A stretch of 64,000 bases of DNA from Ignavibacteriota bacterium (GCA_963776275.1 CAVZMI010000025.1:32338-96337); one strand, 5' to 3'; shown: positions 3,657 to 11,034, numbered from the stretch's first letter. The notes: generated from the sequence alone by a model not told the origin. Numbers and translations: made by a program.

Positions 3657-5928
3657 TTAATGCACCGTATGAATTTTCGGTGCAGATGGCTTCGATCTGT
3701 TGCCATCTTTCGCATAATATTGAACCTGATAGTAGTACGTTTCACCCCGGGCAAGGTGTTCATCTTTGAATTTGTTTTCCCGAATGATCGGACTTATTTG
3801 ATGATAGCCGGAATCGAACTTTTTACTGCGAAATACTACAAAGCCAAGATATTCATCATTGTAGCTCGGATCCCAGGTGAGAGTCATCGTACATTGGGTG
3901 GTGTCTACAATTTGCAGGTTCATCGGTAGAGCCGGAAGATGTCGATCATAAGCGAAAGTCCCGATCTCGGGCGAAGGATTACCCGGGTTGCCCATGTAAT
4001 CAACTCCTCTGACCCGGTACCAGTAGTTTGTCTTCGGACTTATATCCTTTGTATCCAGAAATGAAAACATGGAGTCGGCCCAATTGCTCGTAGCCGGGAT
4101 AAGTCTGCATCCTACTGTCGATGGATCAGGAACGGCAAGGTCGGGGCTGACTTTTTCCCACAGTCCGGCCGGATCGTTCGCACGTTCGACAATGAACCCA
4201 AAAAGATCCTGAATCGGCGGTGAAACCCATTGAACAAGTATCGCCTTATCGCGTGCATAAAGACCGGCTATCACCGGTGCAGACGGCCGGCCGGTCTTTC
4301 AAGCGGTCACAAACACTATCGGACATGACACTCAGGTTCTGGCTTTTATCGTATGCTCTCATTGCATACCTGTAACATATCGGCGAACCTTTGGGGACAC
4401 TGCGGTCGGGGTACTTCCGCGCACCGGCGCTGTCGATATTACCAATAAGTGCAAGATTGTACGGACGACAATATATTCTAATCAGTCGCCAGCCTACCCC
4501 TGGAGGTCTATTCTCTGTTAACTCGACTGAGTCTCTTCTAAAACCAGTGGTCAAGTGCGTCATAGTTTGCTGTTTATCATTCCGAAAAACATAGACCGTT
4601 TCACATCCGCAAATCCCACGATAGATATAAAAGCCGGCCAGATCGGCATCTGAGGGCGGATTCCATCGAAGCAGAATTGAATCTTCGTACGCATCTGTCG
4701 TTAATCCCGTCGGTCGGTTAGGAGGGAACGGATCCTTGAAAAATCCTGAAACCGGAGCCGATTTGTTACTAAAATTATGTACCGGGATCGCACTATCTTC
4801 GCAACAGACACGATACCAGTATGTTGTCTCAGGTTGAATAGACGGCATGGAGTCAACAAAATTGACGTTAGTCACAGTATCAGCCGGTCTGGGGACACTA
4901 CCTGCTAAAATTCCATGTGTGTCTTCAGTTGAATTCACAAAACTAATGTAGCGGTAAATTGAATATTTCTGAACTCGTTCAGGTCGTCTCACGATGTCCG
5001 TATCTATTTTTGCCCAGGTGAGCCTCAGTCCCAGTGTGAGTGGTTGAACCATTATTCCCGCAGGTGTCTGAGGGGGAGTCATATCGCGGGGTGTCGCAGA
5101 GACGATGTGGCTCGCGCTGCCAAGGCGCCCTAGAAGATCGGCTGCCTGTACTTTATAATAATACGTTGTGTTATTCACACACAGGGTATCCAGAAATCCC
5201 GGTTTATGAACGAGCATAGTATCGTTTGTGATTGGGTTATGCTTGAATAATCCTGAAGTACCCGATGGCGATGTTATTCGACCGAAGGGCCCGCCAAGAG
5301 CTGTTGATCGAAAGACATGATAAGCGATTGCGTTCTCCATTTTCCCCCATGTTATAAAGACGAGGGTATCACCGGCTTCGGCTGTTGTTGATGGTGGTGC
5401 CGGAAGAAGTTCAACCTCTCCGGCTTTGACTTTAAGATCGGATTTTAAAATTTTCTCGACTCCATCCTTCACCGATTTGATCATATAAAAATACGTCTGT
5501 CCGGAAACCACGCCATGATCTTCATACGCTATTCCCCGTACCTCCGCTATTTTATAATAACGAAGCGCAAGTGCACTTCTCGCTTTAAACCAGTCCTTCT
5601 TCTTGTCGCTGTTAGCCCCGTTGATCTCACAGCTTGTTATGTGCAGTGTTTTAGAAATAGCAGTCGCCTCGGGAGAATGGCTAGGAATCACAGTGTTGAT
5701 CTGAGTACAATCAGTGAGGGGAATGATAAGAAAAGGGTTAATTTTTAAATATGTACCGCCGTCTGTTTTTCGATAGATATTGAATCCATCGATCTTTCCC
5801 ATTTCATCCCATGAGAGTAGAACGAAGTCGGTCTGGACAGTTGCTTTGAACATAAATTCTTCTGCTGAGAGGGTATTGACCCCCGAGAAGAATAGTATAT
5901 AAATAAAAAGAATCAGCTTGGTTCTCAT
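3657..5928 (-). CDS. Secreted fibronectin type III repeat protein (~760 aa; split by one frameshift near 4288)
   Basis: Signal peptide; repeated Fn3 patterns (LSW..GFNIYR, YYYKVQA, LRWNPP..GFYIYR, YWYRVRG, YYYQVQ); ORFs 4246-5979 and 3657-4274 join as DRLKD.(T)PPSAPVIAGL; SD AGGAGG. Confidence 0.8.
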
Positions 5929-6082
5929 TTCTCCTCCTAGTACCCATACAATTAAATGATTGAACAGTATCTGCATCACATTTCTCCAACTAAACCTTTT
6001 TTCTTTACAGCGATTGTTTTCTATGATCTATAATGGTACTGTGTGCCCTTGTTTGAATGTCTAATTATTGTATGTAGTGGCA

Positions 6083-9900: not shown

Positions 9901-11034
9901 GACTTTAATAGTACCCTTGGGTTTTCCAAGAAGGTCGATTAAATCTCTTTTTCCCTTTAGCAAATCTACGCGGAGATCGGATTTTGAGGGGATATCGAGC
10001 TGTAGTGTTTCGCCTATCTTCGCTTCGGGATTTATAAGTTTTGCCGTTTCCAGGTTGATTTCCGTGAGCGTATCGCTTACAAACGGTACGACCTGAAATG
10101 TTTTTGAGATAAGTTTAATATTGCCCGAAAAAATTGGAAAAAGAGTGACAAAATCGCATGAAAAAGATGTCCATGCGACGCCGGAAGCGTTCGTCATTAC
10201 ATTGCGCTCGAAATCCCAGCTGCGGCCCGGGTCATAGGATTCTACTTTTAAAATAAAGCTTCCCATCACAAGTGTATCAGGAGGATTACAATACGCGGGA
10301 TCGATAGCACAGATGATGGCATCGATTTTTTTACGGACGTCGGCGATCAACACGGGGATTTCAAATTCCTGATCTCGGGTGTCATCCAGCTGATCTTCCA
10401 ACGCTTCCAGGTCGTGTTTTGATCTATTAACGCTTTCACGGCTCATAACATCTTTCGAACGATCCAGCCGTGCCGAAGCTTCTTTCAGAGGTCCTTTTTC
10501 CATGGCGATGATGATTTCCTCACGATAGCTTTTCATCGCTTCTTCAGCTTTTTTTCGGGCTGCGCGTATATCGCCGGCCTCCACTTTTTGGATTGCGTCC
10601 TCATAACTCTTCTCGGCATCCGCGAATTCGGAAGGTGCCAGCTTGATGTACTCTCGCTGTGCCGCTTCTTTCCTCATGACGCTCGCTTTTGCAAGAGTGA
10701 TTTTGGAAATATTTGCCGTTTCAATTGCTTCGTTTGTTGCTTTTACCGCATCACGAAGCGTTTCGCGGATATCTTCGAGACGCTCGCCCTCCCGATAATC
10801 TTTTTCGGCGCTCCTATATAATTTTAGAGCTTTTTCGTAAAGGCTTGGCGCAAAAGTAGGCACTTCTTCTTGCTGTGCTTTTTTAATTGCAGTCTCGATT
10901 TCTCGGAACAGTTCGCTCTTCACCCGATCCTGTTCTTGTGCGAAAACAAACGAGGTCGGACAGGCCAGTAGAAGGATGAGCACTGCAAATATAAACGGTA
11001 AAATTTTTCGACAATGGGAAGAATTCATAGGCAT
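6976..11034 (-). CDS. Large secreted protein (1352 aa): helical Ala/Glu/Lys-rich N-terminus followed by long beta/Gly-rich region with Cys-rich C-terminus
   Basis: Long ORF with signal peptide; no full-length family recognised. Confidence 0.85.
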   Translation of the reverse strand: MPMNSSHCRKILPFIFAVLILLLACPTSFVFAQEQDRVKSELFREIETAIKKAQQEEVPTFAPSLYEKALKLYRSAEKDYREGERLEDIRETLRDAVKATNEAIETANISKITLAKASVMRKEAAQREYIKLAPSEFADAEKSYEDAIQKVEAGDIRAARKKAEEAMKSYREEIIIAMEKGPLKEASARLDRSKDVMSRESVNRSKHDLEALEDQLDDTRDQEFEIPVLIADVRKKIDAIICAIDPAYCNPPDTLVMGSFILKVESYDPGRSWDFERNVMTNASGVAWTSFSCDFVTLFPIFSGNIKLISKTFQVVPFVSDTLTEINLETAKLINPEAKIGETLQLDIPSKSDLRVDLLKGKRDLIDLLGKPKGTIKVRFENLTIEPVAHSKVGKVLEGTAHYPTVPPTPDRITLSIAGFKVYIDSLLLAPTAATAQAELEFPPSIVDLSECRPGHVNLGTISINSSCQFHKELYDSTFGPWVMDNTGIVFGGTGFVADFSTSWMVPAGPDLPPMLPAWRGVVLKSGSTIAHSSIDTSNVGFLYGSYRFTNATVRSSGLNTKLVLDSVRKYMTLAPLAYYIFLHGGSLQIENGMVREGSFAVAGELPPGVKSDGGSPIPFHFNSFKVDSLLNITGVIDTLHSKIILSESYALAVRKGNFFLPAAPVPIAPLYFDRSTYNRSTIESILDTMPLPGLTIYRKNIDSLMISSKDVHPRFWVKRPHGWLNIVTQGGVGDIYLFGNPKEILDIQCRLGQPGTPGYKSDSTFATEFKDTVIVDFVHNAVYDMYFKGDITIPYPCGPAVVGVKIPFYDMGFTSTGACVGGNPVFADTITLDYWGVGITSKWGVVSVRTGEILYTDAMITEPRHFALGFNIYWGEMRADGNLGNFFFNYNSGNQKFDGFPFTIHNASLSRYNPIPALAEGHPLLGYLEVEGDVHFPFWGSRTVTIRDYKYPDRPETPYNLRYVRITPDYFAVQRNWGSGRADMNFSVVCYDSLDQDGFQGRGQVKLLGQLDGTIASLMDMSSIASNIYYCSGEMEEGAGASASDVLLTGAVGSITLGPIGGSIQIIGDKLERIYIEGPMEMSGDVGWLGIGAAMQINGLMTVEITPTSLTLGTVAGISMTLVRVAGLQGMAGIKFTASTTGLQGDIFGNFNTFPVQVGAEGQFSFGVGYPPNPSFYFEGYAKTWIYFFGSGMKAEGALVVALNAPRGQLWALDKIGKSLTANKVLTSLGVASDARLTGFYGGGKFGGTLDLGIIDGGCWVWGGAGCFYITNSSSFIIVGNAGVEITGEVLYGLLSASLWAELGGALDVSAIPPRFSLCGAAGIDVCCCWDLICFGWSGSVCIGTNGIKTN

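Follow-up and report, generated by a model that had tools for sequence, protein, structure and literature searches.

A giant protein with a predicted outer-membrane barrel, an Fn3-repeat partner and an exchangeable enzyme: an undescribed cell-envelope gene module

The described systems closest in layout to the locus analysed here are the type V secretion systems (autotransporters, two-partner secretion and the patatin-like type Vd) and the Lap system of Pseudomonas (LapA/LapG/LapD/LapE). The locus is a group of three genes on a stretch of 64,000 nucleotides from an Ignavibacteriota bacterium (GCA_963776275.1, CAVZMI010000025.1:32338-96337; the whole stretch is hereafter called the window), encoding a giant protein, a small enzyme with the predicted fold of phospholipase C (PLC) and P1 nuclease, and a protein with Fn3 repeats. 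Like type V proteins, the giant protein has a signal peptide, a large variable N-terminal region and a C-terminal outer-membrane beta-barrel, the last of these being a prediction; adhesin-type domains in the N-termini of its family and the association with a hydrolase are further points of likeness. Unlike in type V systems, however, no Autotransporter, POTRA, ShlB or Omp85 match was found in the trio (Pfam and NCBIfam, E ≤ 0.1), the predicted barrel of about 16 strands follows a conserved core of about 250 residues, and the enzyme and Fn3 parts are encoded as polypeptides of their own. In the Lap system, too, the gene for a giant surface protein goes together with one for a small exported hydrolase, but the trio gave no RTX, type I secretion (T1SS), LapG (BTLCP, PF06035) or LapD family match, and the window enzyme has the predicted fold of a zinc phosphodiesterase and not of a protease. 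A C-terminal sorting domain of the type IX secretion system (T9SS; PF18962 or TIGR04183) was found in none of the three proteins (Pfam and NCBIfam, E ≤ 0.1), in agreement with the first-pass annotation of the stretch, which had been made from the sequence alone and had seen no obvious T9SS tail. Judged by these comparisons, the module appears to be without the tested defining features of type V systems, T9SS cargo and Lap-type systems. The same annotation had recognised no described system with this architecture, and a literature search, judged by titles and abstracts, found none.

Three co-oriented reading frames were found on the minus strand (6976-11034, 6083-6964 and 3657-5979), where they had been annotated, and the gap of 11 bp noted between the first two genes was exact. 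The N-termini of all three proteins, inspected by eye on the translations and alongside homologue N-termini, show a basic n-region followed by a hydrophobic core and a cleavage motif of the small-x-small type, and look like the Sec signal peptides that had been assigned to them. The genes of the module in the window are as follows.

6976-11034, minus strand: giant protein gene, an open reading frame (ORF) of 1352 aa
6965-6975, no strand: spacer of 11 nt from the giant stop codon to the enzyme start codon
6083-6964, minus strand: PLC/P1-fold enzyme gene, an ORF of 293 aa
3657-5979, minus strand: Fn3-repeat gene, made up of two frames that overlap, one of 577 aa (4246-5979) and, counted from stop to stop, one of 213 aa (3657-4298)

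Recurrence of the module and exchange of its enzyme gene

The locus is read as one variant of a widespread, undescribed cell-envelope module. The giant and Fn3 genes were adjacent in 38/38 loci examined, in two phyla and down to about 28% identity. Among loci with a PLC-like enzyme (PLC-type loci: the window, the congener G001, L005, L007, L008 and L009), the pairing was seen in 6/6, the enzyme gene being flanked upstream by the giant gene and downstream by the Fn3 gene, all co-oriented; L003, L004 and L006 are identical in sequence, and L005, L007 and L009 end at contig edges. The window giant and enzyme are 92-96% identical to those of the congener. Tight coupling of the genes was indicated by the 11-nt gap in the window together with the overlapping giant and enzyme ORFs of the orthologous locus L008. 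Recurrence of the trio as a neighbourhood, which the first-pass annotation had proposed looking for, was borne out by these counts.

Within the order to which the window belongs, the giant was present in 14/277 genomes, namely 2/3 in family f1 (counting G000), 12/68 in family f8 and 0/206 in the seven other families. The f8 loci had the Fn3 gene directly after the giant gene in 12/12 cases and a PLC-like gene in 0/12; a conserved exported protein of about 334 aa, referred to as the Cys/His protein, was encoded after the Fn3 gene in 8/8 loci with enough downstream sequence. In the phylum of G639, the genome holding L005, the giant was present in 23/272 genomes (homologues with WOR-3 source names occur among the Fn3-family matches). 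There the Fn3 gene followed the giant gene in 20/20 loci from 17 genomes, with a PLC-like gene in 0/20, and a longer homologue of the Cys/His protein was encoded in 19/20, after the Fn3 gene in 16 and before the giant gene in 3, the remaining locus ending at a contig edge. Over the 38 loci, the slot was occupied by the PLC-like enzyme in 6 and by the unrelated Cys/His protein in 27, and was cut off by contig ends in 5; the PLC profile A1 matched the 6 PLC-type loci and 0/32 others. The enzyme slot thus varies, the other property that had been singled out for checking.

The Cys/His protein is 334 to about 570 aa long and carries invariant GNC[FY]G, IMHG, GGHxLxAY and VVDPNRLW motifs (L018:5819-6823, minus strand; homologues in L034-L038, L041, L043 and L076-L095). 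It had no Pfam or PDB-sequence relative, and the ESM Atlas gave unnamed clusters only. Comparison of the PLC-like enzyme with the Cys/His protein by hhalign gave a probability of 1.9%, and the two enzymes are therefore regarded as unrelated. They were also mutually exclusive in the genomes checked: the Cys/His protein was found in 0/3 PLC-type genomes (G000, G001 and G639; A3 profile, positive control G025 at 8e-183) and the PLC-like protein in 0/4 Cys/His-type genomes (positive control G001 at 1.7e-157). The swap amounts to a natural experiment, which separates the constant platform of giant and Fn3 rod from the variable enzymatic part.

The window module and the Cys/His-type modules of the G639 phylum share homologous giants (A4 profile on the latter, E 1e-111 to 1e-157), homologous Fn3 partners and one order of these genes. 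The window differs from the Cys/His-type modules in that the PLC-fold enzyme gene is inserted between the giant and Fn3 genes and in that the giant has an added helical N-terminus. Furthermore, the Fn3 partner in Cys/His-type loci of that phylum has an N-terminal FecR domain (11/81 family matches; PF04773, E 2e-10), and two further genes, for a 551-aa protein and a tandem receiver (tandem-REC) protein, follow the module, whereas the window Fn3 protein is without a FecR domain and neither gene was seen beside the window trio. Divergently upstream of one Cys/His-type module (L076:238-1779, minus strand), a 513-aa protein with Peptidase_C39_2 and T9SS-type C-terminal sorting domains is encoded.

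For the core-plus-barrel module of the giant, a quick tree by maximum likelihood was built from 32 rows, and it is effectively unrooted; the partial sequences L007, L009, L032, L040, L041 and L043 (length filter) and the duplicates L004 and L006 were left out. The four PLC-type giants in the tree formed one clade (SH-aLRT 100), with long branches flagged, and the window giant grouped with L005 and L008, apart from the f8 giants of its own order. Because of this topology and the patchy distribution, a single origin of the PLC-type cassette and its movement between phyla are suggested. The window contributes the replacement of the Cys/His enzyme by a PLC-like one, the single origin of this swap on the tree, its occurrence in Bacteroidota and, for the giant, the prediction of a barrel.

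The enzyme and the zinc phospholipases C

The enzyme was assigned to no Pfam or NCBIfam family (E ≤ 0.1): the window protein had no match to PF00882 (Zn_dep_PLPC) at this threshold and none to PF02265 (S1/P1 nuclease) in the Pfam scan, and the L008 orthologue reached 15 bits against PF00882 (E 0.024), below the gathering cut-off of 26.8 bits. A word-prefilter search of 5.8 billion entries gave 16 related proteins with no names attached. The profile of the enzyme family matched B. cereus PC-PLC (best 2fgn, E 6e-05; 1ah7, E 1.3e-04) over the H..D..H / H..E region. A model of the enzyme was obtained with AlphaFold2 (AF2; pLDDT 79, pTM 0.80), and the top rows of a Foldseek search with it were all zinc PLCs, with PlcB, PC-PLC and alpha-toxin first (probability 1.00, E about 4e-03). 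Superposition with VIA-align gave the following values.

Enzyme model against PC-PLC and alpha-toxin: Z 17.1, rmsd 2.8 Å, 197 residues, model residues 25-293 on chain residues 1-243
Enzyme model against S1/P1 nucleases: Z 11.6-12.6, rmsd 3.6-4.1 Å over about 200-210 residues
Enzyme model against the next unrelated fold: Z 4.5

With the zinc PLCs taken together (B. cereus PC-PLC, L. monocytogenes PlcB and the N-domain of C. perfringens alpha-toxin; PF00882), the enzyme model shares an all-helical fold at Z 16-17 and rmsd 2.8-3.1 Å over 190-198 residues. The S1/P1 nucleases (PF02265) have the superfamily fold in common with it, but the match is clearly weaker than that to the PLCs. On the strength of the model, the enzyme is a divergent member of the zinc PLC/P1-nuclease superfamily at fold level and lies nearer the PLCs than the nucleases.

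Invariant in the 15 aligned enzyme sequences were W25, H30, D105, D117, D120, H132, D143, H174, D178, H184, E186, H202, E206, H241 and E246, which include all candidate metal ligands (W25, H30, D117/D120, H132, H174, D178, H184, H202 and E206). Counted by hand along the profile alignment, H174, D178, H184, H202 and E206 fall on H118, D122, H128, H142 and E146 of 1ah7, which are zinc ligands of PC-PLC; the H-x3-D-x5-H and H-x3-E ligand motifs of the zinc PLCs are aligned with, and invariant in, the enzyme family. As in the zinc PLCs, a Trp stands at the predicted mature N-terminus, W25 lying directly after the predicted signal peptide (cleavage site by eye), and VIA-align placed model residue 25 on chain residue 1 of the mature PLCs. 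The N-terminal W25, H30, D117, D120 and H132, which are invariant, are candidate counterparts of the W1/His/Asp/His ligands of PC-PLC. The trinuclear zinc site of the enzyme looks complete. Both the PLC/S1-P1 fold and the zinc-ligand pattern that the first-pass annotation had read in the middle protein therefore found support, the former in the superposition on PC-PLC and the latter in the invariance of the ligands.

Several features set the enzyme apart from the zinc PLCs. Sequence identity is 16-19%, with the shortfall against the PF00882 threshold given above, and about 70 extra residues are present, including a beta-hairpin; unlike alpha-toxin, the enzyme is without a C-terminal PLAT/C2 domain, and unlike the zinc PLCs in general it is encoded in a diderm and within a three-gene module. 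In contrast to PC-PLC, a His sits 5 residues past the Trp, which is the spacing of the P1/S1 nucleases rather than of PC-PLC. From the fold alone we infer that the enzyme may degrade membrane or nucleic acid, and a nuclease activity would be compatible with the model. The family extends the PLC/P1 superfamily by a divergent, diderm-associated branch that is missed by current Pfam models.

The giant protein and its Fn3 partner

The giant protein also had no Pfam or NCBIfam family (E ≤ 0.1). An exhaustive profile search of 1.84 billion representative clusters with its core-plus-barrel module (615 positions) returned 175 clusters at E ≤ 1e-3, of which 124 reached E ≤ 1e-30; nearly every full-length member has the module at its C-terminus, after a variable region of 400-1800 aa. 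In 33 representatives scanned, FG-GAP repeats were found in 5, TIG in 3 and PPC in 1, with only nine families overall, and member 1 had no domain family; the FG-GAP, TIG and PPC domains in these N-termini are of surface type. The family is without a name, a Pfam family or a described function. The giant profile gave nothing significant against PDB sequences (the best being a NusA N-domain, E 0.006 over 60 residues), Foldseek gave low-TM matches only, to large barrels and Rhs cocoons, and the ESM Atlas yielded no usable match. The following parts were distinguished.

10285-10938, minus strand: helical N-terminal region (about residues 33-250), lineage-specific and missing in most family members
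8038-8781, minus strand: most conserved core (about residues 752-999), with motifs FTST..GG, YWGV, EPRHF, WGE, QKFD and YDSL.QDGF
6979-8037, minus strand: predicted outer-membrane beta-barrel, the C-terminal 300-350 residues or so, with about 16 long antiparallel amphipathic strands

The signal peptide covers approximately residues 1-32 and ends in an A|Q cleavage motif that is conserved in the homologue N-termini; sites of this kind are typical of Bacteroidota proteins cleaved by signal peptidase I. Inside the signal peptide (window 10939-11034, minus strand), and upstream of the A|Q site, a weak lipobox-like motif, L[LW]AC, was seen in the window giant and three close homologues. The giant could conceivably occur as a lipoprotein.

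The family-defining module (about residues 253-1352) was folded with AF2 from 15 sequences (residues 253-1352; mean pLDDT 68.6, pTM 0.43). Residues 253-740 or thereabouts form beta-sandwich-like domains with block-mean pLDDT mostly of 70-93. The N-terminal 145 or so residues of the core (model residues 490-643) were the worst-modelled part (block-mean pLDDT 22-40), the rest being moderate. The core carries invariant E, H, D and Q residues (in EPRHF, WGE and QKFD) and may serve as a plug, in binding or in catalysis. In the model, the barrel region is an unbroken series of about 16 antiparallel strands, each 11-19 residues long, in which hydrophobicity alternates (dyad pattern). In a wide VIA-align search with the giant model, membrane beta-barrels filled the first 49 of the 50 rows listed, at Z 9-13.8, nearly all of them bacterial outer-membrane proteins matched over model residues of about 750-1100. 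Individual matches were:

CymA: Z 13.8, rmsd 8.2 Å, 222 residues aligned
Maltoporin: Z 13.1
OprC: Z 13.0, rmsd 4.9 Å, 218 residues aligned
CdiB: Z 10.3, among many barrels

Other rows among the barrel matches listed were TonB-dependent transporters, SusC, LptD, PgaA, Occ and chitoporin. It is probable, on these models, that the giant is anchored in the outer membrane via its C-terminal beta-barrel. Rather than being simply secreted, the giant, which the first-pass annotation had placed in a secreted module, is predicted from AF2 and VIA-align to be held by an outer-membrane barrel.

The Fn3 protein has six Fn3-like repeats by motif, the last of which matches fn3 (PF00041, E 3e-09); its gene probably starts at ATG 5931 (MRTKLIL..), with GTG 5979 as the alternative. 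The family search gave 81 matches. One full-length homologue, P0099 (26% identity, 93% coverage), has a source name in the Microbacteriaceae, which are monoderm and have no outer membrane. In the window the gene is interrupted by a frameshift, which splits it into the 577-aa and 213-aa frames; the 577-aa frame terminates at ...DRLKDRPAVCTGDSRSLCTR*, and the sequence goes on as ...PSAPVIAGLYARDK... in another frame.

4246-4298, minus strand: frameshift zone of the Fn3 gene, with a 2-nt deficit relative to the congener G001 at about 4286-4290, in a CCGG-rich run

The congener has an intact single Fn3 ORF of 774 aa (L003:9476-11800), and more distant Fn3 orthologues are also one intact ORF. Of the three genes originally annotated, the giant and the enzyme stood as intact frames, whereas the Fn3 gene is not one open frame in the window. 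A neighbouring gene for a GAF-SpoIIE (PP2C-type) phosphatase (window 12615-14782, plus strand) is likewise broken: the window has an in-frame TAA (13575-13577) where G001 reads CAA, and a 2-nt indel lies near 14315, so that three frames result. In G001 and G002 the gene is a single intact ORF, of 694 and 688 aa respectively. The broken Fn3 and GAF-SpoIIE genes could reflect either a genome accumulating lesions or an imperfect consensus.

Possible roles of the module and its surroundings

The reading preferred here, to which somewhat less than an even chance is given, is that of an outer-membrane platform and Fn3 rod with an exchangeable hydrolase payload. The giant would be exported by Sec and sit in the outer membrane via its C-terminal barrel, preceded by the conserved core and a stack of beta-sandwich domains and, in the window lineage, by an extra helical head; this insertion, the topology, the physical association of the parts and the substrate are what we infer. 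The six-domain Fn3 protein would be the constant partner of the giant. A small, Sec-exported, exchangeable hydrolase would be supplied by the third gene, in most lineages as the Cys/His protein and in this clade as a trinuclear-zinc phosphodiesterase of PLC fold, the mature N-terminal Trp of which would be made by signal-peptide cleavage. The platform of giant plus Fn3 protein would hold or present this enzyme at the cell surface or envelope, and its substrate there would be a lipid or a phosphodiester, either external or of the envelope. It would not be a dedicated processing enzyme of the platform itself, and it is read as payload because two chemically unrelated hydrolases occupy one module.

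A number of observations weigh against this arrangement. The barrel model is of medium confidence by the scores given above, and its structural matches have a high rmsd (4.4-9.5 Å). The window giant ends in ...GIKTN, without the C-terminal aromatic residue of the beta-signal, and an aromatic end (F, Y or W) was found in only 16/76 long family representatives, so that the usual outer-membrane terminal signature is weak; in alignment A4, made up largely of close relatives, the terminal residue was aromatic in 8/11. The helical N-terminus of the giant hints at a different location. Family profile A2 (positions of about 10-200) matched proteins of about 470-620 aa in six places of five other Bacteroidota genomes (L012-L017; E 3e-14 to 2e-6), and 5/6 of the proteins sharing this N-terminus end in an OmpA-C-like motif. 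The two that were scanned (L012 and L013) had OmpA (PF00691) and a sub-threshold DUF4398, against which the helical region of the window alone gave E 0.47. Proteins with an OmpA-C domain are periplasmic, and because of this likeness the N-terminus of the giant may be periplasmic, on the peptidoglycan side, and not at the surface. Neither the enzyme nor the Fn3 protein has a further secretion signal such as a T9SS C-terminal domain, and both may therefore stay in the periplasm. Co-folding of the L008 Fn3 protein (residues 27-736) with its PLC-like enzyme (residues 43-309) gave no verdict in either direction (score 0.00). In addition, the frameshift in the Fn3 gene means that the module may be decaying in the window genome.

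A release or maturation mechanism resembling that of the Lap system was considered unlikely. A periplasmic hydrolase would here cut a tether of the giant or of the Fn3 rod and so control display or release, the PLC-fold enzyme cleaving a phosphodiester where the Cys/His enzyme cleaves a peptide or amide. The presence of Sec signals only on all three proteins, with no further secretion tag, would be in line with such a role, as would the fact that the hydrolase gene always lies within the module. However, a PLC-type phosphodiesterase cannot cut a protease site, the swap fits a shared protein substrate poorly, and the trio is without the Lap-specific and T1SS-type families listed at the outset. 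One peptide cannot be the substrate of both a protease-like enzyme and a phosphodiesterase, and for this reason the platform with a payload was favoured over release and over the two readings that follow.

A role in uptake or scavenging was judged to have a slim chance. The barrel would then be a substrate channel, and the periplasmic Fn3 protein and hydrolase would process entering or membrane-located material, for example phosphodiester nutrients. The best barrel matches were to substrate-specific porins and TonB-dependent transporters (CymA, maltoporin, OprC, Occ and chitoporin), and the Fn3 partner of the other phylum has the N-terminal FecR domain, a domain that in FecR proteins contacts the outer-membrane transporter. 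These structural matches are generic, however; no plug, TonB-box or transporter family was detected with Pfam, and no transporter or catabolic genes lie beside the trio in the window. That the genes encode merely co-transcribed envelope proteins with separate functions, left in the window genome as a decaying remnant, is very improbable, since the frameshifted Fn3 gene, the broken GAF-SpoIIE neighbour and the patchy distribution (14/277 genomes of the order) must be set against adjacency in 38/38 loci over two phyla to about 28% identity and against a giant and an enzyme that are intact and 92-96% identical to those of the congener.

Taken further, the platform with a payload leads to a proposal that we put forward tentatively and consider rather unlikely in full: the giant and Fn3 proteins would constitute an outer-membrane apparatus for display or secretion that has so far gone unrecognised in FCB-group bacteria, resembling type V systems in function but unrelated to them in sequence, and with interchangeable cargo; this clade would have captured a PLC-fold enzyme in place of the usual cysteine hydrolase, and the whole cassette would have moved between phyla. 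If true, a new way of bringing enzymes to the outer membrane or past it would add to the secretion and display systems of diderms, and would help to explain how lipids or polymers in peat and sediment are attacked by uncultured Bacteroidota and WOR-3-like bacteria. The small, probably soluble zinc enzyme, with its well-understood fold, offers a biochemical handle on the module.

The first-pass annotation had placed the trio between the scar of a truncated aldo/keto reductase gene and a tRNA-Arg gene, as an acquired block might lie. The tRNA gene was confirmed.

11462-11536, plus strand: tRNA-Arg(CCG), upstream of the trio on the opposite strand

A discrete acquired island was not confirmed. 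In favour of acquisition are the gene tree and a break of synteny at the tRNA-Arg with G002, from the other genus of the family, in which the tRNA-Arg, a TPR gene and the right flank are conserved, while to the left of the tRNA there is an 851-aa gene, glycoside-hydrolase-like by eye, the dehydrogenase being 283 kb away. Against it, no integrase was found among the flanking ORFs scanned and no att-like direct repeat of the tRNA end at the block, and the base composition of the block resembles that of its surroundings (GC 0.42-0.49 within it, 0.39-0.51 around it). Consensus scans for promoters (21 promoter-like sites against 14.1 expected) and terminators (5 terminator-like sites against 7.8 expected) were uninformative. 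The aldo/keto reductase scar was not confirmed: the flanking gene at 2034-3182 is an acyl-CoA dehydrogenase by domain scan, and the short frame considered as the truncated remnant (3261-3560, minus strand) had no Pfam or PDB-sequence match. This frame, which ends in ...EENLKAIDLPPLSDTTMSAIREVYDRYARPNMHQYW, is 92.6% conserved in G001.

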